Source: Abditibacteriaceae bacterium
Lineage (GTDB): Bacteria; Armatimonadota; Abditibacteriia; Abditibacteriales; Abditibacteriaceae
Direction of reading: 5' to 3'
Assembly: GCA_031372065.1 (NCBI GenBank)
Contig: JANMKN010000122.1
Coordinates: 1 to 36,242, forward strand
DNA: 36,242 nucleotides
The translations under genes and the position numbers were made by a program. A model generated the notes under the pieces. It did not search any database, had not been told where the DNA came from, and worked only from the letters and a program-made list of their open reading frames with translations. The first letter of the stretch is position 1, and every line of letters starts with the position of its first letter. Below, piece by piece: positions 25,089 to 35,348 of this stretch.

Positions 25089-26456
25089 CTATTGCAACTG
25101 AAAGTAACCGCTGCGATTACCAACTCTGATGTTGATGCGGCGTGTGTTTTGGTCGTAGATGGCGGTGCCACCGATGCCTTCGAGTAGGGTGCCCAACGGC
25201 GCGTAGAGCATGCCGTTGTGCCGTTGGGTGGCAATCGAAAGGCTGGTGCGACGGCCTGAGAGATCAACATTGGTTGAGTTTTCTTTCAAACTCAGCACAT
25301 AGTTGCCGCGCGTCACTTTAATGATGTCGCGGGTCACTTTGGTCGAAGCGCCAGCCCACTTAGCGATTTCCATAACCGGGCCTAAATAAACGCGGCTGGT
25401 GCCTTGTCTGGTTTCTTTATCGGCGTAAACCAAAGGCGCACCGAAATCGAGGTTTCCGGTTTGCGAGTTGTTTTGCGTGTCGCTTTGGTAAGTCGGCGGG
25501 TAAGTTGTCGGCTGAGATTGTGAATCAGGCGTATTTGGGTAATACACCGGAGTATTTGGATTCGATGAGTTCGGATAATAATTCGGCGTGTTCGGATTGT
25601 AAGCCGGATTATATGGCGAGGCGTTGTTCCATGTGTTGCCGCCGCCAGCCATCCACTGTTTTGGGCCGCCACTGCGCCGGGCCACATCGGTCAAGTTTTC
25701 ATCGGCTATGATTTTTGTGACTGTAGCCTGACGCTTTTTGGGGTCGGGGTGGCTTGCCAGATATTTGTCGAGAAAACCGCTGCCTTTGCCATCGTCCAAC
25801 TTGCCGAGCATGGTGTAGGCCGCTTGCGGGTCGTAACCCAATTGGCTCATCCAGCGCACGCCAACAACATCTGCGTCCGTTTCCTGATCGCGCGAGTAGC
25901 CTTTTTCCCACACGTTAAACGCCACACCACCCAGAGCGCCGATAGTGTCGCTGTTTTTGCCTTTGCCCAAAATTGCGCCCAAAATGCCGACTAATAAACC
26001 GGCTTTTTGCTGCTTTTCAACGCTTTCCACAATGTGTTTACGCTCAATGTGGCCGGTTTCGTGGCCCAGAACATAAGCGAGTTCTGCATCGTTGGAAGTC
26101 GTCGTGACCAATTTGCGTGTCACGAAAATCGGGCCGCCGGGCGCTGCGAAAGCGTTCAGCACTTTGTCGTTCGCCAGCACCTGATAGCTGTAAGGGATGT
26201 TTTTGCGCGTCGAAAGATGGGCGAATTGCTGCCCGATAGCGCGCACACGCACCGACATCGGATCGTTGTAAGGCAACGCCGCCCCGTATTCTTTTTGCGC
26301 TTGCGCCGCGACTTCTTTGCCAGCGGCGATTTCGTCTTTTTCCGACAGGCCAAACAAGCCAGCCTGCGCGGGAGTTGTCAATTGCGGCGCCGCCAAAACC
26401 GCACTCAAGGCGAAAAGCGGCAGACAGTTTTGAGTTTTGAGATTTTTAAGTTTCAT
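25089..26456 (-). CDS. secreted M48 metalloprotease with Asn/Pro/Tyr linker and C-terminal copper-amine-oxidase-N-like domain
   Basis: NAFAAPGG, ELAYVLGHETGH, YSRDQETDAD, SHP; C-terminal NGMLYAPL...YDQNTRRINI. Confidence 0.88.
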   Translation of the reverse strand: MKLKNLKTQNCLPLFALSAVLAAPQLTTPAQAGLFGLSEKDEIAAGKEVAAQAQKEYGAALPYNDPMSVRVRAIGQQFAHLSTRKNIPYSYQVLANDKVLNAFAAPGGPIFVTRKLVTTTSNDAELAYVLGHETGHIERKHIVESVEKQQKAGLLVGILGAILGKGKNSDTIGALGGVAFNVWEKGYSRDQETDADVVGVRWMSQLGYDPQAAYTMLGKLDDGKGSGFLDKYLASHPDPKKRQATVTKIIADENLTDVARRSGGPKQWMAGGGNTWNNASPYNPAYNPNTPNYYPNSSNPNTPVYYPNTPDSQSQPTTYPPTYQSDTQNNSQTGNLDFGAPLVYADKETRQGTSRVYLGPVMEIAKWAGASTKVTRDIIKVTRGNYVLSLKENSTNVDLSGRRTSLSIATQRHNGMLYAPLGTLLEGIGGTAIYDQNTRRINIRVGNRSGYFQLQ

Positions 26457-26628
26457 GGGTTCCTCCGTCCAAACAGCTTGTAAAACGCCAAGCTGGGTGT
26501 GTGTGTTCAGTGTAATATTTGGCTGCCTAAAACATATAGCAAACTTTGCGCCTTCAATTTTCCTTTGGGCAAAGATTCACCTATAATAACAAAAGGAAAA
26601 AAGTCCCCGACGAAAATGAGGAGAAATT

Positions 26629-27483
26629 ATGAGCATTGAAGCTAAGGGTTACGCCCATCCTGAAGTCTTGGTGGATGCCGATTGGGTGCAGGCCCACAAG
26701 GGCGATGACGGCGTCAAACTGGTCGAAGTAGATGTGGACACCAACGCCTACGCCGAAGGTCACATTCCCGGCGCGATTGCGTGGAACTGGACATCGCAAC
26801 TCAACGACCAATTGCGCCGCGATATTCCGTCCAAAGAGCAAATCGAAAAATTGCTTGGTGACAGCGGCATCAAGAGCAGCGACACGGTTGTTTTGTATGG
26901 CGACAACAACAACTGGTTTGCCGCGTTTGCCTTTTGGATTCTGAAAATTTACGGCCATCAAGACATTCGCCTGATGGATGGTGGTCGCAAAAAATGGCTG
27001 GCCGATGGCCGCGAAACCACCGCGCAGGACGAAAATCCGCAAGCCACCACTTACACCGCGCAAGAGCCTGATTTGTCACTGCGCAGCAATGTTATGGAAG
27101 TCGTCAAGCAAATCGAAGCGGGCGATTATAATTTGGTGGACGTGCGTTCGCCCGCCGAATTCACTGGCGAAGTGATTGCGCCTCCCGGCATGACCGAAAC
27201 CGCGCAACGCGGCGGCCATGTGCCGGGCGCCAAAAATATCCCGTGGGCGCAAGCTGTCAACGACGATGGCACCTTCAAAGATGCGGACGCGCTGAATACG
27301 CTTTATGGCGGCAAAGGCATCGAAAAAGGCAAGCCGGTCATCGCTTATTGCCGCATTGGTGAGCGCTCGTCGCACACTTGGTTTGTGCTGCAATATCTGC
27401 TCGGCTTTGAAGGCTGCAAAAACTACGACGGCTCTTGGACAGAATACGGCTCCATGATCGGCGTGCCGATTGAAAAGCCGTAA
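26629..27483 (+). CDS. two-domain thiosulfate sulfurtransferase (rhodanese)
   Basis: GHIPGA, DVRSPAEF, YCRIGERS active-site loop, YDGSWTEY; GAGGAG RBS. Confidence 0.93.
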   Translation: MSIEAKGYAHPEVLVDADWVQAHKGDDGVKLVEVDVDTNAYAEGHIPGAIAWNWTSQLNDQLRRDIPSKEQIEKLLGDSGIKSSDTVVLYGDNNNWFAAFAFWILKIYGHQDIRLMDGGRKKWLADGRETTAQDENPQATTYTAQEPDLSLRSNVMEVVKQIEAGDYNLVDVRSPAEFTGEVIAPPGMTETAQRGGHVPGAKNIPWAQAVNDDGTFKDADALNTLYGGKGIEKGKPVIAYCRIGERSSHTWFVLQYLLGFEGCKNYDGSWTEYGSMIGVPIEKP

Positions 27484-27484
27484 A

Positions 27485-27551
27485 CAGTGGTCGGTGGGCA
27501 GTGGTCAGTGAGCAGAAAAACTGACCACCGACCACTGCCCACTACCTACTG
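27485..27551. repeat. inverted heptamer tandem repeat
   Basis: CAGTGGT CGGTGGG CAGTGGT CAGTGAG ... CTGACCA CCGACCA CTGCCCA CTACCTA. Confidence 0.8.
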
Positions 27552-27553
27552 AA

Positions 27554-27922
27554 ATGTCAACTTCCTCCACTTTTTACAAAAAAACGCTCGCCAACGCGGA
27601 AATGGCGCAGGTGATTTTTCGCGTGGCGGTTCTGGAAAAATATCGCGAATCCAGCGATGCGCGCGTGACGCGCACCAATACTGTCGGACGCGTCAAAGGC
27701 ACCTCGTGGACGTTGGATTTTGGCATCGCGCCCGATGAAAACAGCGTTCATGTGCCACTTTCGGCGCTCAAAACGCGCTTGCCCGAACGAGAATTGGAAC
27801 ATTGGCTTTCGTTTGTGGATGATTCGCGGTTTTCTGAAAATTTCCTGAAAATGCAATCTTCTCACGCTTGCATTGATGACGGCGGCTATCGCGAATGGGG
27901 CGAAGAAGAAGCGCTATTTTAG
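27554..27922 (+). CDS. hypothetical protein (122 aa)
   Basis: Typical codon usage; co-oriented with the rhodanese gene. Confidence 0.7.
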   Translation: MSTSSTFYKKTLANAEMAQVIFRVAVLEKYRESSDARVTRTNTVGRVKGTSWTLDFGIAPDENSVHVPLSALKTRLPERELEHWLSFVDDSRFSENFLKMQSSHACIDDGGYREWGEEEALF

Positions 27923-27955
27923 CATCAATGCTAAAAGCCACCGCAAAAAATAATC

Positions 27956-27984
27956 TTGACAACGCAACGGTCAAACAGTAAAGT
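27956..27984 (+). promoter_or_regulatory. sigma70-type promoter
   Basis: TTGACA (27956-27961), 17-bp spacer, TAAAGT (27979-27984); A-rich UP-like tract upstream. Confidence 0.75.
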
Positions 27985-28044
27985 TTCGATTCGTTTGCAA
28001 GTCGCAACGCAATTTCAAATCCATTACCCAAGGAGGTGCCTGCT

Positions 28045-28149
28045 GTGAAAAATCACAATTCATTTCAACCCAGTTTTAGTTTCAGTTCACCGAACCCTTT
28101 TCCGGCAGGGCACCTTGCGGAATGCTTTTGGCGCGTCTTGATTTCATGA
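28045..28149 (+). CDS. putative attenuator leader peptide, 34 aa, MKNHNSFQPSFSFSSPNPFPAGHLAECFWRVLIS
   Basis: AGGAGG at 28031-28036, 8 nt before GTG; AGT codons at positions 10, 12 and 14; lies between the promoter and the terminator. Confidence 0.75.
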   Translation: MKNHNSFQPSFSFSSPNPFPAGHLAECFWRVLIS

Positions 28150-28180
28150 CCGCTTAATGCATTCAATTTTTCGCATAGAG

Positions 28181-28219
28181 CGCCCTCACCGGAATTTCGG
28201 TGGGGGCGTTTTTGTTTTT
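28181..28219 (+). terminator. attenuator terminator
   Basis: CGCCCTCACCG-gaattt-CGGTGGGGGCG (11 bp, one G:U) followed by TTTTTGTTTTT. Confidence 0.88.
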
Positions 28220-28221
28220 CA

Positions 28222-28306
28222 GGTGGGTTGGCTGAGTGGTCGAAAGCGCTTCACTGCTAACGAAGTGAACCTATGGGTTCCGGGGGTTCGAATCCCTCAC
28301 CCACCG
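28222..28306 (+). tRNA. tRNA-Ser (anticodon GCT), no encoded CCA
   Basis: Acceptor GGTGGGT/ACCCACC plus G73; D arm GCTGAGTGGTCGAAAGC; anticodon loop CT-GCT-AA (GCT at 28256-28258); long variable arm GAACC/GGTTC; T arm GGGGG-TTCGAAT-CCCTC. Confidence 0.93.
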
Positions 28307-28325
28307 CTGAGGTTTTGAAGTCATC

Positions 28326-29387
28326 ATGAACAGTGCAGTTTCTCTAACTCCGGCGCGTTTGCCGGAATTTTTATTGAATGTGGCAACGGTGCGTCCGGTT
28401 TTCATCTGGGGGCTGCCGGGCATCGGAAAATCCTCGCTCGTCGAAGAATTCGCGCGCAGTGTTGGTTTGAAATGCGTGTCGCTTTTGGGTAGCCAACTGG
28501 CGCCGGAAGACCTTATCGGCGTGCCCCGCATCGAAGACGGCAAAAGCATTTTTTGTCCGCCGCGCCTCATCGCGCGCGACGAGCCGTATTGCTTGTTTCT
28601 TGACGAATTGAACGCTTGCTCACACGAAGTGCAAAAGGCGTTTTATTCGCTGATTCATGACCGCCGCTTGAGCGAATATGAATTGCCAGCGGGTTCGATT
28701 GTTATTGGTGCGGGCAACCGCGCGCAGGACAGCGCCATTGTCAAACCGATGTCTTCGGCGTTGCTCAATCGCATGGTTCATGTGCATTTGCAGGTGTCGC
28801 ACCGTGATTGGCTGGCTTGGGCTGGAGCGAATGGCATTCATCCTTTGATTCTCGAATATATTGGGCTGCGTCCCGACCATTTGTGGAGCGCACCGCCCAA
28901 ACATGAAGAGCCTTTTTCCACGCCGCGCTCGTGGCATATGCTGTCCGATGCGCTGAATGCGGCGGGCGCAAGCGGCGAAAGTGCGGGCGATGAACTGCTG
29001 GACGTTTTGTCCTTTGGCTGCCTGTCGCCGCAACACGCCGGGCAGTTCAAAGCGTTCAACAAGCAACTGCGCCATCGCTATCAATTGAATTCGATTCTCA
29101 AAGGCGATGTCGGTTGGCCGCACGCGCCCGAAGACCGCGATGTGCTTTATTTTCTGGCGCAATCGCTGCGGGCGCGCTTGATGAAAGAACTGCCGCCAAC
29201 GCGCGAAAATTTAGGCGGCTCGCAGCAGGAATTGGCCCATCGCGCCAAGGCTTTGCTAACCGAACTGGCCGGTCTCAGTTTGGAAATCGCGCAAATGAGC
29301 GTGGCCGAACAAGACGGGCAAACTTTGCCCGCGTGGTTTATGACCGAAATCGTGCGTGACTTGCCGCGCTTGGTGGTGAAGAAATAA
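28326..29387 (+). CDS. MoxR/dynein-related (AAA_5-like) AAA+ ATPase
   Basis: WGLPGIGKS Walker A, DLIGVP, LFLDELN Walker B, GAGN sensor I, ALLNR arginine finger, TPRSW sensor II. Confidence 0.9.
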   Translation: MNSAVSLTPARLPEFLLNVATVRPVFIWGLPGIGKSSLVEEFARSVGLKCVSLLGSQLAPEDLIGVPRIEDGKSIFCPPRLIARDEPYCLFLDELNACSHEVQKAFYSLIHDRRLSEYELPAGSIVIGAGNRAQDSAIVKPMSSALLNRMVHVHLQVSHRDWLAWAGANGIHPLILEYIGLRPDHLWSAPPKHEEPFSTPRSWHMLSDALNAAGASGESAGDELLDVLSFGCLSPQHAGQFKAFNKQLRHRYQLNSILKGDVGWPHAPEDRDVLYFLAQSLRARLMKELPPTRENLGGSQQELAHRAKALLTELAGLSLEIAQMSVAEQDGQTLPAWFMTEIVRDLPRLVVKK

Positions 29388-29436
29388 TTTCGTTTCCCCC
29401 TTCTTTTCAAGGGGAGGGGAAGGCAGGATAGGGTTT

Positions 29437-31248
29437 ATGGCACGCAAAAAGAGCGGCGAAAACAAACGCGATGTTGCGACGGAAAATTTTAGCGCGGGCA
29501 TGGTTTTGGTGTCGCGCCATCCGATTTTCGCACGTTTATGGCAATACGCGGCGATTTATCGCAGCGAAAGCTATGCGATGCCCGCCGATGGTTGGGCTTA
29601 TGTCACGTCCAACGGCGAAATTTTCGCGCATCCCAAACGCCGCGCCGCGCCCGAAGAATGGCTGCACGTTTTCGCGCATTGCCTGCTGCACTTGGGCTTC
29701 GGACATTTCCGCGAACGCGAAAATGCTGCCGCGTGGCAAGCGGCCTGTGATTGCTATGTCGCAAAGTTTTTGGGAGACATGAAATTGGGCCGCGCGCCGC
29801 TGGAAATGCAAGGCGCCATCGAAATGGCGCGCGATGAAGAAACGCTGTATCGCCGCTTTTGCGAAAACGGCGTGCCGCCCGGCACTCTGCATTTGGGCGC
29901 GCTTGGCCCAACGCGCCCAGATATGGTTTTCGTGGCGCCGTCAGCTTATCAGTCGTTGTATCGGGCGAAGCCATCCGATTGGTCGCGTTTGCTGGGTGAA
30001 GGCTTGGCTGATGCGGTTTCGGATGCCGTCAAAGTGGCGGCGGGCGTCTTGCCGCATTTAGGCGCGACAACTACGATGCGCAGCGCCGCGCAACGCGCCC
30101 GCGAGTGGTTTGTTTCGTCGTATCCGCTGCTCGGCGCGTTGGTGACGGCCTTTGATATTATTGAAGATCAGCTTTTTAGTCATCGCAAGGAAAATTCCGT
30201 GGCGGCGGTGGATATTGAAGGGCGCGAAATTTTCATGAATCCGGCGGCGGGTTTGGATGAAATGGAGTGCCGTTTCGTGATGGCGCACGAAATTTTGCAC
30301 GCCGCCTTGCGCCACGATGCACGGCGCCAAGGGCGCGATGCGTTTTTGTGGAATGTTGCCTGCGATTTCGCCATCAACGGCTGGCTGATAGAAATGGGCG
30401 CCGGTGAAATGCCTCGTTTGGGTGGTTTGCACGATGTCGAACTGAAAGGCTTGTCTGCCGAAGCGATTTATGACCGCATTGTCACGGATATGCGACGCTA
30501 TCGCAAACTTTGCACGCTGCGCGGCGTGGGCGCGAGCGATATTCTCGAACGCGGCACGCCGGATTGGTGGAATTGTCCGGCGGGCGTGACTTTGGACGAG
30601 TGGTATCGCCGCGCTTTGGGGCAAGGATTGGAGTTTCATCAAAGCCACGGGCGCGGCCTTTTACCCGCTGGTTTAATCGAAGAAATTCGCGCTTTGGCCA
30701 TGCCGCCGGTGCCGTGGGATGTCGAATTGGCACGTTGGTTCGATCAGCATTTTCCGCCGCAGGACAAAGTGCGCTCCTATGCCCGCGCCAGCCGCCGCCA
30801 GATGGCAACGCCGGATATTGCGCGTCCGGCTTTGGTGCGCGACAAAGAACTGCCCACGCGCACTCTCGGCGTGGTGTTGGACACGTCCGGTTCGATGGAC
30901 AGGCGCTTGTTGGCGCAGGCGCTGGGCGCAATTGCATCCTACAGCGTGGCGCGCGAAGTGCCCACCGCCCGTGTTGTTTTTTGCGACGCACAGGCGCACG
31001 ATGCCGGTTATATGGCGCCCGAAACCATTGCCGAACGCGTCCAAGTGCGCGGGCGGGGCGGCACCGTTTTGCAGCCGGGCATTGACCTTTTGCAAGACGC
31101 CAACGATTTCCCGCCCGATGGCCCGATTTTGATTATCACCGACGGCTATTGCGACCACGTGCGCGTGCGCCGCGAACACGCTTTTTTGCTGCCCGAAGGC
31201 CACAGTTTGCCTTTTGTGCCGCGCGGCCCGGTGTTTCGCTTGAAGTGA
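29437..31248 (+). CDS. DUF2201-like putative metallopeptidase plus VWA domain protein
   Basis: AHCLLH...WQAACD and AHEILH...WNVACDFAIN peptidase-like units; VWA MIDAS LDTSGSM, GRGGT, IITDG. Confidence 0.85.
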   Translation: MARKKSGENKRDVATENFSAGMVLVSRHPIFARLWQYAAIYRSESYAMPADGWAYVTSNGEIFAHPKRRAAPEEWLHVFAHCLLHLGFGHFRERENAAAWQAACDCYVAKFLGDMKLGRAPLEMQGAIEMARDEETLYRRFCENGVPPGTLHLGALGPTRPDMVFVAPSAYQSLYRAKPSDWSRLLGEGLADAVSDAVKVAAGVLPHLGATTTMRSAAQRAREWFVSSYPLLGALVTAFDIIEDQLFSHRKENSVAAVDIEGREIFMNPAAGLDEMECRFVMAHEILHAALRHDARRQGRDAFLWNVACDFAINGWLIEMGAGEMPRLGGLHDVELKGLSAEAIYDRIVTDMRRYRKLCTLRGVGASDILERGTPDWWNCPAGVTLDEWYRRALGQGLEFHQSHGRGLLPAGLIEEIRALAMPPVPWDVELARWFDQHFPPQDKVRSYARASRRQMATPDIARPALVRDKELPTRTLGVVLDTSGSMDRRLLAQALGAIASYSVAREVPTARVVFCDAQAHDAGYMAPETIAERVQVRGRGGTVLQPGIDLLQDANDFPPDGPILIITDGYCDHVRVRREHAFLLPEGHSLPFVPRGPVFRLK

Positions 31249-31343
31249 AAACTTTGATCTGATAACTATTGCGGCAACTTAGAGCGTTCACGCGGCGTCG
31301 AAAGCATTGCTTTTGACGCCGCGTTTTTTTGGCAAGTTTTCTT

Positions 31344-32669
31344 ATGCGATTTTTGTCTCGTTCATTTTTCATTTTTGCTTTTTCACTTTTCATTTTTCAT
31401 TGCGCCCACGCGCAGCCTTTGCCCGAACGCGCGCCGTTGCTGGGAAAAGTCACTACGACTGCCGCTTTGCCGATTGGCGGCGCGACAGTGACCGTCACGC
31501 GGCAGGATTATCAAGTCGTCGGCGAAGCCGCTTTTTGGGGCGGGCGCTTGCTGACCGGTTCCGATGGCGTCTTCAGCTTTCCCGAAGGCGAAGAAGGTAT
31601 TTATTCGCTGTCGGTGGTGGCTGAAGGCTACGAACCTTTTACCGGCACACTCGAATGGCAGCCAAAAGCGCCGCTTTATGTGACCAAAATGCTCAAACTC
31701 ACGCCACAGCCGCTGCACATTTTGAAACCGGATGGAACACCGGCAGCGGGCGCCAAAGTGTTTTTGTATTGGCGCGGACAACCGCCGGGACACGTTTCGC
31801 CCGCGTCTTTTGTCGCCGATGCCGCCGGAAACGTGGCTGTGCCGCCCCTCACGCCCGCGCAGTATTGGTTGCACGCTGTTGTGCCGGGCGTTGGCTACGC
31901 CATTTTTCCTCGTTTCCTCGTCAAAGAAAACCAGCCGCAAACCGCCGAAGTGAAATTGCAAACCGGAGGCATCATTCGCGCCACGGCTCGCACTGCCGAG
32001 GGCAAAGCGCTCGGCGGCGTGGCGTTGGGATTAAAAGAATGGGTCTCCGATGCTGCTGCGCAAGCCGAAGGTGGCATCGCGCAGGGCAACGATGGCGCGC
32101 TCTATTTGCAAACGCAGCCGCACTCGACCTTAGTCACGCAAGATGGCAGCGGCCAAATGGAAATTTTGGACGTGGCGCCGGGACGCTATCAGGTGCGCTT
32201 CTATATGCCGGGCGAAGCGAATCCGCTCGCGCAAACGATTGAAGTCAAAGCGGGCCAAGCTACAGAAATTAGCGGCATTTACACTTTGCAAGGCACCAAA
32301 ACGCCTTTGCAACTCACCGTTCAAACCTCTGATGGCAAGCCCGCTGCGGATCGTGAATTTGTGGTGCGTTTGCAGCCTTTGCGCAACGGTAATCCGGTGG
32401 CGTTTGCCGCTGAAGGCCCGCCGGTTCCGCCCGATGTGGCGCCGACAGTGGCGAGCTTGTTTCAAAGCGATTTGCTGCGCCGCATCAAAACCGACAGCAA
32501 CGGCAAAGCCACCCTTTTCCCGTTGCGCGCCGACGAATGGCAAGTCGTTGTTTTAGAGGATGCGCAAACGGTAGCGACCAAACCGCGAGCGACTGCCAAT
32601 AAAATTACGTTAGGCGAGCAGGGTGGCGAATTGACAGTCAAACTTGCGGCTCCCGCAGCACAACCTTAA
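31344..32669 (+). CDS. secreted protein with repeated carboxypeptidase-regulatory-like/Cna-B beta-sandwich domains
   Basis: Signal peptide ending AHA-Q; repeated P(I/A)xGAxV...TxxDG...GxY units. Confidence 0.75.
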   Translation: MRFLSRSFFIFAFSLFIFHCAHAQPLPERAPLLGKVTTTAALPIGGATVTVTRQDYQVVGEAAFWGGRLLTGSDGVFSFPEGEEGIYSLSVVAEGYEPFTGTLEWQPKAPLYVTKMLKLTPQPLHILKPDGTPAAGAKVFLYWRGQPPGHVSPASFVADAAGNVAVPPLTPAQYWLHAVVPGVGYAIFPRFLVKENQPQTAEVKLQTGGIIRATARTAEGKALGGVALGLKEWVSDAAAQAEGGIAQGNDGALYLQTQPHSTLVTQDGSGQMEILDVAPGRYQVRFYMPGEANPLAQTIEVKAGQATEISGIYTLQGTKTPLQLTVQTSDGKPAADREFVVRLQPLRNGNPVAFAAEGPPVPPDVAPTVASLFQSDLLRRIKTDSNGKATLFPLRADEWQVVVLEDAQTVATKPRATANKITLGEQGGELTVKLAAPAAQP

Positions 32670-32673
32670 TTCC

Positions 32674-33063
32674 GTGAAAATCGTTCGCCTCGTTAATCGC
32701 GCCCAAAATTCGGTTTTATGTGAACGTTGTTCCATCGCTGATACCTTTTGGACGCGTTTGCGCGGCTTGCAATATCGCCCGCCGCTGGCGCCAAACGAAG
32801 GCTTATTTATTACAAATTGCCCCTCAATTCACATGATTGGCGTCAGTTTTTCGATTGATGTAGTCTTTCTTGATGCCGAAAACCGCGCGACGGATTGGGT
32901 CGAAAACCTGCCCGGCGGCTTTCATTTTTACGTCGCCAAAGCGCGCCCAGACCAAGGAAAGCAAACGTTCGGCAAGCCCCTCAACGCCATCGAATTGCCT
33001 GCGGGCAGCATCGCGCGCCAAAACCTGCAAATCGGTGACGAAATTGCGATAGAAACGGCGTAA
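32674..33063 (+). CDS. DUF192 family protein
   Basis: ADTFWTRLRGL, SIHMIGVSFSIDVVFLD, IELPAG, LQIGD; GTG start at 32674. Confidence 0.85.
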   Translation: MKIVRLVNRAQNSVLCERCSIADTFWTRLRGLQYRPPLAPNEGLFITNCPSIHMIGVSFSIDVVFLDAENRATDWVENLPGGFHFYVAKARPDQGKQTFGKPLNAIELPAGSIARQNLQIGDEIAIETA

Positions 33064-33090
33064 AAACGGCTTTTCGCACTCAAAAATGCC

Positions 33091-33375
33091 TTCGGTAAAC
33101 GTTTCCCGACCTTCGCGGGCTTCCCGGACGGCTTCCGCAAACGTTTCCCGAAGGCATCTGGAAAGCCCGGCAGACTCGGCAAACGTTTGCGGGACGCGCC
33201 GGGGAATGTAGGAATACTTGGCAAACGTTTGCCAAGACCATCGGGGAAGCCCGGCAGAGTCCGCAAACGTTTGCCGAAGGCACCGGGGAATGCAGGAACA
33301 CTTGGGAAACGTTTGCGGAGCGTGTCGGGGAATGCAGGAACACTTGGGGAACGTTTCCCGAAGGCGCTGGGGAAT
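33091..33375. repeat. 42-bp period tandem array with palindromic AAACGTTT core (7 units)
   Basis: Cores start at 33097, 33139, 33181, 33223, 33265, 33307 and 33349 (last one GAACGTTT). Confidence 0.92.
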
Positions 33376-33507
33376 AGACTTCTGGCAAAAGTGGCTTTTC
33401 GCGGGGCTTGCCTCCTCTTTCAGTTGTCTCGCTAAGGATTGGAAGAGGGTGCCAGCCCCGCCGAATTTTTTTGAATTTCCCATCGCGAAACCCTATAGAA
33501 TGACCGA

Positions 33508-34680
33508 ATGAAGATTGCTTTTTTCTGCGACGCTTACAAACCGACACGAAACGGCGTCGCGGTTAGCGCCTCGACTACTGCCGAAGAATTACGCCGTCGC
33601 GGGCACGAAGTGATAATCTTCGCGCCGCGTTATCGCGGCCACGAAGATGGCGAAGCGCACGAAATTATCGTGCGCTTTCCGGCAATGCAGTGGTTTCGCG
33701 CCAAAGATTTCGCCCTCGCGCTGCCGATTCTCTCTTCGCCCTACATCATGCCGGTTTTGCGTGCCCAAGAACGCTTTTTCGCGGCGCAAAAATTCGATTT
33801 GGTGCATACGCATTCGCCGTTTACCATTGGCACTATCGGCGCGCGTTGGGCGCGAAAATACGGCGTGCCCGCCGTTTTTACGTTTCACACGCTGTATCAT
33901 CGCTATTTGCATTACGCGCCGCTGCCGCTATGGTATTCGCGGCCTTACACCGTGAAACGCGTGCGGCGCCATTGCGGGTTTTGCCGCCATGTTATCGCGC
34001 CCTCGCAAGCCATCGCGCGCCGCATGAACTATTTTTGTCCCGGCATGAAGGTTTCTGTCGTGCCAACCGGCGTGCGAATTGAAAATTTCGCCAATGGCGA
34101 CGGCGAAAACGTGCGAAATCGCTACGAAATCGCGCCCGATGACCTCGTTTTGCTTTATGTCGGGCGAATTGTGCGCGAGAAAAGTCTCGATTTCCTGTTG
34201 CGCTCTCTCTCGCCGCTTTTGGGCACCAAAAACGGTCAGCGCGTGCGTTTAATGCTCATCGGCGGCGGCCCGGCCACGCGCGAATTGCAAAATTTAGCGG
34301 CTCGATTGGGTGTCAGCGACGACATTATTTGCACCGGCTTCGTGGACGCGCCGCAAATCCCCGATTTCCTCGCGGCGGGCGATATTTTCGTTTTCGCCTC
34401 GCGCAGCGAAACGCAAGGCGTTTCGATTTCCGAAGCCTTGGTTTCCGGCCTGCCCTGCGTCGTTGTCGGCGCGCTGGGCGCTGCCGAAGCCGTCACGCCC
34501 AACGAAAATGGCTTTGTCGTGCCGCCCGACGAAGAAAAATTCCGCACCGCCGTGCAAAAACTCATCGAAAACCAAAATTTGCGCGAAAAAATGGCCGCAT
34601 CCGCGCGAAATTCCGCGCCGAAATTAGCTTTGCAAAATAACGTGGACGAACTGGAAAAAATCTACGAAGGCTTATTTTGA
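33508..34680 (+). CDS. GT4 glycosyltransferase (diacylglycerol glycosyltransferase-like)
   Basis: MKIAFFCDAYKPTRNGV, HTHSPF, TFHT, YVGRIVREK, FASRSETQGVSISEA. Confidence 0.9.
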   Translation: MKIAFFCDAYKPTRNGVAVSASTTAEELRRRGHEVIIFAPRYRGHEDGEAHEIIVRFPAMQWFRAKDFALALPILSSPYIMPVLRAQERFFAAQKFDLVHTHSPFTIGTIGARWARKYGVPAVFTFHTLYHRYLHYAPLPLWYSRPYTVKRVRRHCGFCRHVIAPSQAIARRMNYFCPGMKVSVVPTGVRIENFANGDGENVRNRYEIAPDDLVLLYVGRIVREKSLDFLLRSLSPLLGTKNGQRVRLMLIGGGPATRELQNLAARLGVSDDIICTGFVDAPQIPDFLAAGDIFVFASRSETQGVSISEALVSGLPCVVVGALGAAEAVTPNENGFVVPPDEEKFRTAVQKLIENQNLREKMAASARNSAPKLALQNNVDELEKIYEGLF

Positions 34681-35348
34681 TCGCTAATACCCAAACGCAA
34701 TTGCTTTTGCAGACTGTAAACCACGCTAAGAATCACAAACGAAACCACCAATAAAAACAGCGAAGTGCGCGCGGCGCTGGCGTAATCCATGCTTTGCACG
34801 CTGTCGTAAATCGAAATCGAAACGGTGCGCGTCACGCCCGGAATGTTGCCGCCGACCATCAAAACCACGCCAAATTCGCCCAAAGTGTGCGCGAAACTCA
34901 GCACCAAACCCGCTAAAATGCCCGGCCAACACAGCGGAACTGTGATTTCCCAAAACGCGCGCAGCGGCGAGGCGCCAATGCTCTGCGCCGCTTCGATGAG
35001 GTTTTTATCCACGCCGCGCAACGCCGCTGTAAACGGCTGCACGGCAAACGGCAGCGAGTAAAGCACCGAGGCAATCAGCAATCCGCTGAATGAAAACGGC
35101 AATTGCGAGTCGAAACGGCCTTCCCAGAACTTTCCGAGCGGACTTTTTGGCCCCAGCGCCACCAAAATGTAAAATCCGATGACCGTCGGCGGCAAAACCA
35201 GCGGCAAAGCGACAATCGCTTCGACGAAAACGCGCCAGCGCACTTTGGTTGTCGCCAGCCAATGAGCCAGCGGTAAACCGATAAAAAATAAAAGCGCGGC
35301 TGTTGTCGCCGAAAGCCGCGCTGTCAGGGCAATTGCCTGCCAATCCAT
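34662..35348 (-). CDS. modB: molybdate ABC transporter permease
   Basis: LPLVLPPTVIGFY, EAAQSIGAS EAA loop, FAHTLGEFGVVLMVGGNIPGVT. Confidence 0.95.
   Translation of the reverse strand: MDWQAIALTARLSATTAALLFFIGLPLAHWLATTKVRWRVFVEAIVALPLVLPPTVIGFYILVALGPKSPLGKFWEGRFDSQLPFSFSGLLIASVLYSLPFAVQPFTAALRGVDKNLIEAAQSIGASPLRAFWEITVPLCWPGILAGLVLSFAHTLGEFGVVLMVGGNIPGVTRTVSISIYDSVQSMDYASAARTSLFLLVVSFVILSVVYSLQKQLRLGISDQNKPS

Follow-up and report, generated by a model that had tools for sequence, protein, structure and literature searches.

Why should a tRNA gene lie behind a terminator and a short ORF whose codons that same tRNA reads? The question was raised by a window of 36,242 nucleotides (contig JANMKN010000122.1 of an Abditibacteriaceae bacterium), in which an earlier note had recognized such an arrangement and read it as attenuation of the trp/his type, through which a tRNA would be governed by its own codons. 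The regulation of single tRNA genes in bacteria has been called largely unknown (PMC8421152), and one mechanism was found described for spare tRNA arrays, a cyanobacterial repressor. The comparative predictions of that note were borne out, and its reading is supported. With a probability of about 75%, we consider the locus to be a ribosome-mediated transcription attenuator, under which a spare tRNA-Ser(GCU) is made only once the decoding of AGY codons slows down. If this is true, it would represent a protein-free and isoacceptor-specific feedback on tRNA supply, likely a counter to tRNA-cleaving toxins, and the codons of such leaders could predict which tRNAs are attacked in nature. Since it has one tRNA and three control codons, the focal unit is the simplest test case.

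Parts of the Focal Locus

The promoter, the AGGAGG with its GTG, the 34-codon ORF, the AGT codons, the terminator and the tRNA-Ser(GCT) were all found where they had been placed, on the forward strand, to which the window positions below refer. The predicted promoter is of the sigma-70 type (TTGACA-17-TAAAGT, 27956..27984), and a similar site occupies the equivalent place in a relative of the same genus (G001). It ranks top among 5 promoter-like sites in 26400-35000, and because shuffled sequences average 3.9 such sites, the match by itself is not significant. Between promoter and terminator lie a ribosome-binding site and a short ORF: the Shine-Dalgarno sequence AGGAGG (28031..28036) stands 8 nt 5' of a GTG at 28045, which opens a leader of 34 sense codons (28045..28149, stop at 28147-28149) homologous to a 37-codon leader in G001. 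The leader contains 6 Ser codons in total, among them the control codons AGT at 10, 12 and 14 (28072..28086), and it is Phe-rich (5 codons), a richness that is not kept in G001. Under genome codon usage, 3 AGY in 33 codons corresponds to p=0.039. All three AGT codons fall within the 10 codons before the antiterminator boundary and none in the other 23; the boundary was defined as the place where the antiterminator ceases to form when the RNA downstream of a ribosome is folded at each codon.

From folding, segment 1 (28034..28051) comprises the end of the Shine-Dalgarno sequence and the start codon and pairs with segment 2 in ribosome-free RNA, a form that is not kept in G001. Segment 2 (28098..28114) is the predicted 5' strand of the antiterminator and begins with 11 nt that are the same in G001. 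Segments 3 and 4 form the stem (28177-28212) of a predicted intrinsic terminator (28177..28219), whose U-tract ends at 28219. The tRNA-Ser(GCT) follows at 28222..28306 (ARAGORN; Rfam RF00005, 55.8 bits); it is a second copy, with no encoded CCA and with an A31:C39 mismatch. A single 1280-nt DNA contig, possibly from the source sample, spans the leader, the tRNA and the start of the next gene, which encodes an AAA ATPase, with 0 differences.

Alternative Folds of the Leader RNA

The three mutually exclusive helices that had been drawn by hand were supported by energies and by folding of the focal RNA. The predicted energies were -23.4 kcal/mol for the 1:2 duplex, -19.1 kcal/mol for the 2:3 duplex and -27.0 kcal/mol for the 3:4 hairpin. 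The fold check suggested in the earlier note, with and without occupancy of the leader, gave two different forms. The free full-length RNA folds as 1:2 plus 3:4 (z -4.2, 0 of 200 shuffles), while a ribosome with codons 10-14 in its A site is predicted to leave the transcript, taken to 28197, in the 2:3 fold. With the ribosome at codon 20 or at the stop codon the 2:3 fold was not predicted, and a stall anywhere in codons 2-16 permits it. In these predicted folds, the antiterminator excludes the terminator and sits directly past the control codons. Among codon-shuffled focal leaders, 11 of 300 paired with the terminator arm equally well. At equilibrium with segment 2 free, the terminator was still favoured (-53.6 versus -48.1 kcal/mol); since it wins there by about 5 kcal/mol, the switch would have to be kinetic and decided during transcription, as is likewise the case in classical attenuators.

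Taken alone, the focal locus is suggestive of an attenuator. Because the single-locus statistics (p=0.039; 11/300 shuffles) go no further than this, it is the comparative data that carry the claim.

A Spare Copy of tRNA-Ser(GCT)

The tRNA-Ser(GCT) of the window is a spare copy. A separate housekeeping tRNA-Ser(GCT), for which a check of the genome had been proposed, was found on contig C208 with a promoter immediately in front of it. The focal tRNA is 59% identical to this housekeeping copy, from which its anticodon stem-loop differs, and 75% identical to the copy in G001.

Of 27 family genomes, 16 had more than one Ser(GCT) copy, with three layouts among them. At five loci (L157, L158, L161, L163 and L164), a second tRNA-Ser(GCT) and a transaldolase-like gene lie within the S10 ribosomal-protein operon without a leader (labels from translations). 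A terminator-free variant occurs in G009 (L162) and G018 (L160) between a tRNA-Leu(CAG) and a second tRNA-Ser(GCT): a short ORF begins with an ATG behind a Shine-Dalgarno sequence and has AGT as codons 5 and 7. No terminator is present, and the ORF enters the tRNA in frame, its stop being the TAA of the anticodon loop. G016 (L165) has this variant minus the start codon and minus the 5' half of the tRNA.

The Counterpart in G001

When the 27 family genomes were searched at the DNA level, the unit's tRNA turned up in G001 alone, where it follows a promoter-like site, a leader of 37 codons, four of them AGT (p=0.009), and a terminator. The neighbours differ from those in the window, being a divergent ribosomal-protein-like gene (rpmB, label from translation) and a convergent gene. 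The predicted leader-terminator-tRNA unit is thus conserved independently of its neighbours.

The predicted recurrence in relatives was borne out in G001 for the leader, the AGT codons and helices 2:3 and 3:4, with compensatory changes in the terminator; in an alignment read by eye, two of its pairs differ from the focal sequence in both bases and four in one. The 2:3 helix can form in G001 at -15.2 kcal/mol, with 214 of 300 shuffled leaders as good. Unlike in the focal helix 1:2, the start region of G001 is sequestered in the fold by the 3' part of the ORF. Conservation of the helices therefore held for 2:3 and 3:4, while 1:2 as originally drawn is particular to the focal genome. A hand-drawn helix 1:2 for G001 was rejected, as the greater part of it did not reach beyond the likely start site, and a different form was given by the fold.

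Leader-Terminator-tRNA Units across Genomes

Altogether, 24 leader-terminator-tRNA units from 15 genomes were scored. A first set of 13 units in 7 genomes came from low-scoring tRNA clusters fetched in relatives, and a later set comprised 11 units, three of them outside the family. Excluded from the counts were the housekeeping loci among the 40 regions fetched, L277 (a hairpin with only three T), L283 and the first L289 cluster, and, for want of an upstream terminator, the second sub-clusters and the accessory-looking clusters L211, L220, L230 and L280, which have no leader.

The focal genome (G000), which is included in these counts, contributes two further promoter-leader-terminator-tRNA units, on contigs C4 and C272. 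A strong terminator stands <=140 nt upstream of 4 of its 33 tRNA units. In 3 of the 33 the terminator lies between promoter and tRNA, and a leader is present in all three; the fourth is a housekeeping cluster with a promoter-like site 3' of the terminator. Judged from these sequences, the leader-terminator design is general in the focal group. Against codon-shuffled leaders, the antiterminator pairing stood out only in 5 units of 13, in which at most 21 of 300 shuffles did equally well. A metagenome pattern scan for the focal tRNA type yielded 7 loci, and by inspection none of these had both leader and terminator.

On C272 (L238, 5671-6900, reverse strand), the leader-gated unit contains 8 tRNAs and is followed by genes for DUF6847, RlaP and a 1094-aa protein and, last, by a gene that we take to be KptA-like. 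The C4 unit (L239, 9970-10700, forward strand) is a leader-gated His/Trp remnant; its leader fits the longer arrays of G001 and G003 (Leu/Phe/Gly/Arg) more closely than it fits its own array, which suggests loss of tRNAs. Outside the family, L277 (G264) is a 23-tRNA array with a hairpin of like type, an upstream ORF and three T after the stem. On contig C398 of the focal genome (L293), a terminator-like hairpin with a T-run lies directly 5' of rtcB at the contig end, so that a leader, if there is one, would lie beyond the contig. Many Leu tRNAs (L203, L210, L219, L235 and L236; G000 C83:135-208) are 73-78 nt long and have no long variable arm.

Matching of Leader Codons and Anticodons

In the predicted leaders, the codons follow the anticodons of the tRNAs behind them. 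The leader zone reads CRCDRRSDCSDR before an Arg/Cys/Asp/Ser(GCT) array, LNLNQQNLQLQLQ before a Gln/Asn/Leu array and SDKKNQTNSQN before an Asp/Gln/Ser/Lys/Asn array. Permutation of leaders against arrays gave counts that overstate the match, because the starts of the 13 leaders in the first set were picked by eye and the units are related (several of the later set being homologous to first-set units). With the first set sorted into 9 homology groups, 3-36 of 362,880 permutations equalled the real pairing when whole ORFs were compared, and 1 of 362,880 did so within the 15-codon zone; for the later set the counts were 13 and 47 of 40,320 (zone) and 38 and 75 of 40,320 (whole ORF). The fixed rule applied to the later set erred in 4 of its 11 units, with a wrong frame in L276+ and a misplaced boundary in L286, L288 and L289. 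These errors were left uncorrected in the permutations; for the boundary-clustering analysis, starts were set by hand. The doubtful Thr(CGT) call on C4 of the focal genome was not counted as an anticodon.

The cognate codons are concentrated where the switch is decided in the predicted folds. They account for 144 of the 240 codons within 10 codons before the antiterminator boundary versus 343 of 1032 elsewhere, a clustering matched by 0 of 20,000 random window placements. The zone holds two or more AGY in 6 of the 11 units that include a Ser(GCT) gene (L290 being placed in this group) and in 0 of the 13 that do not. Where a G34 tRNA does the reading, the codon ends 40 times in U and 19 times in C; genome usage predicts 23 U, and thus the wobble-read codon is preferred. 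Matching was weak for the C4 and the Tyr/Ser units, and the 20-tRNA array of G013 showed no enrichment of matching leader codons. Across the 24 units, the leader-codon/anticodon matching that had been anticipated held in both the permutations and the AGY counts.

Proposed Mechanism and Trigger

Considering that the layout recurs and that the codons match the tRNAs that follow, the cell probably makes these leader-gated spare tRNAs only when its ribosomes run short of them. Normally, a ribosome trailing RNA polymerase would cover segment 2, and the terminator would form; with no ribosome the leader would fold upon itself, and the terminator would form as well. With a ribosome held at AGT, segment 2 would be available to pair with segment 3 while segment 4 was yet to be made, and the 2:3 pairing would allow polymerase to read into the tRNA and probably also into the AAA/DUF2201 genes behind it. 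The fresh tRNA would relieve the stall, and the loop would be closed. The likeliest trigger would be loss of the GCU isoacceptor by cleavage or inactivation. In mycobacteria, ribosomes stall at the codons of a tRNA that has been cleaved (PMC10287673). Among the neighbours, the RNA-repair gene RlaP after the C272 array is consistent with damage, as are the RNA-repair genes next to some homologues of the AAA/DUF2201 pair. For the wider group, we are slightly inclined to see a codon-level self-test of the tRNA pool, in which spare tRNAs and arrays stand behind leaders of cognate codons, and loss of an isoacceptor to anticodon nucleases would call up its own replacement together with linked RNA-repair genes. 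The Ser(GCT) unit would then be its minimal form, and the terminator-free variant of the sister genus may act via tRNA processing.

Stalls of other origin within codons 2-16, such as those caused by an antibiotic, are also expected to open the attenuator. This permissiveness of the 2:3 pairing also suits a general translation-stress attenuator like those of whiB7, vmlR or hflXr, which would respond to any early stall and in which AGT would play a minor part in vivo; many ribosome antibiotics induce the tRNA array of Anabaena (PMC8421152). A general sensor, however, gives no reason for codons to vary with array content, yet they do vary, and the cognate codons concentrate at the switch boundary, so that we regard it as unlikely. 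Less probable still is a serine-starvation sensor, which would raise the supply of Ser tRNA when charging falls. The six Ser codons of the leader would fit it, and classical attenuators respond to uncharged tRNA. However, extra tRNA would not remedy a lack of serine, the sister leaders carry Leu, Gln, Asn, Cys, Arg and Asp codons according to isoacceptor content, and the adjoining genes are for RNA repair, not biosynthesis. Moreover, serine starvation in B. subtilis slows TCN codons and not AGY (PMC3862929, which cites AGY as insensitive to starvation in E. coli too), and therefore AGT would be a poor starvation sensor. Damage to the tRNA is the more likely trigger for the attenuator proposed here. 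About equally improbable is a silent relic, that is, an acquired tRNA held off by the terminator with an ORF and helices that do not function here: the A31:C39 mismatch, the absence of the tRNA from pattern searches of two further genomes of the genus (79% and 97% complete) and the marginal single-locus statistics would agree with it, but the intact ORF, the AGT cluster, segment 2 and the covarying terminator are found in two species whose tRNAs are 75% alike.

Comparison with Known Systems

Leader-peptide transcription attenuators include trpL, hisL, pheL and the multivalent thrL. As predicted from its sequence, the focal unit shares with the trpL/hisL/thrL type a short translated leader, control codons and the 1:2/2:3/3:4 logic of antiterminator and terminator, helix 1:2 being arranged differently in G001. 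It differs in its output, a tRNA by which the control codons themselves are read, and the loop would therefore sense the supply of an isoacceptor rather than of an amino acid. It controls no amino-acid biosynthesis or synthetase gene, its output being the tRNA and the AAA/DUF2201 pair, and because a tRNA and not a biosynthetic operon is controlled, it is not a strict member of the trp/his/thr class. In Bacillus, His leaders precede hisS paralogues (PMC2965389). A T-box riboswitch was rejected, as only RF00005 reaches the gathering score in the window.

The trn L-array of Anabaena likewise provides spare tRNAs beside a housekeeping set, which stay silent as long as translation is not impaired and have a link to RNA repair (rtcB), and the focal unit would serve a like purpose; the array differs in being controlled by the repressor TrcR at promoter repeats (PMC8421152, PMC10272220). 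It is a long multi-tRNA array, whereas the focal window has one tRNA. The word "leader" is absent from the main text of both papers. Control by TrcR was rejected for the focal genome: its operator repeats, which belong at the -10 box, number 0 at the three leader promoters, and there are 0 tandem copies genome-wide.

With whiB7 the focal unit has uORF-gated attenuation in common, which is predicted here. In mycobacteria, VapC5 cleaves tRNA-Ser(CGA), ribosomes stall at the cognate codons and whiB7 is raised; there, a transcription factor or resistance gene is produced instead of the tRNA that has been depleted, and no matching of codons to output is described (PMC10287673). No resistance or ribosome-protection gene, the output of ermC, vmlR and whiB7 systems, lies downstream of the focal leader. 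Phage tRNAs replace tRNAs cut by anticodon nucleases and, like the focal copy, are spares with an anticodon stem-loop unlike that of the housekeeping copy (PMC10264068); the focal unit differs in being bacterial and, as predicted, leader-gated. Full-text literature searches, which reached only a minority of the subscription journals, gave no report of leader-peptide attenuation of tRNA genes, also when directed at T-boxes before tRNA genes.

Downstream Genes and Surroundings

An AAA_5 (MoxR/dynein-related) ATPase gene (28326..29387) is followed by the gene of its partner, a DUF2201 metallopeptidase plus vWA-like protein (29437..31248). Since only 19 nt separate the tRNA from the AAA gene, co-transcription of the pair with the tRNA is likely, and an intrinsic terminator at 31290..31332 (16 pairs and a T-run) is the probable end of the read-through transcript. 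Some transcripts could stop at a small hairpin that is followed by a T-run and lies near the start of the AAA gene (28349-28366).

The proposed gating of these downstream genes did not hold as a conserved feature: the coupling of AAA gene and leader is not conserved, a strong terminator <=200 nt upstream being present at 0 of 87 close AAA homologues. Among 107 loci with AAA homologues, 103 of which were placed on the query, a tRNA-Ser just upstream was found only at the window's own. When 52 of the 103 candidate neighbours were scanned, AAA/DUF2201 homologues stood beside an RtcB, RlaP, RtcA, Hen1 or RF-1-domain gene at 9 of 43 loci. The focal genome has six PIN-domain matches and one RtcB.

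Directly 5' of the promoter lies a 122-aa ORF (27554-27922, forward strand) with no Pfam match, part of which is covered by a relative's contig with 20 differences. Between this ORF and a rhodanese gene, a short inverted repeat with tandem units (27485-27552) was observed, and related sequence occurs on other contigs.
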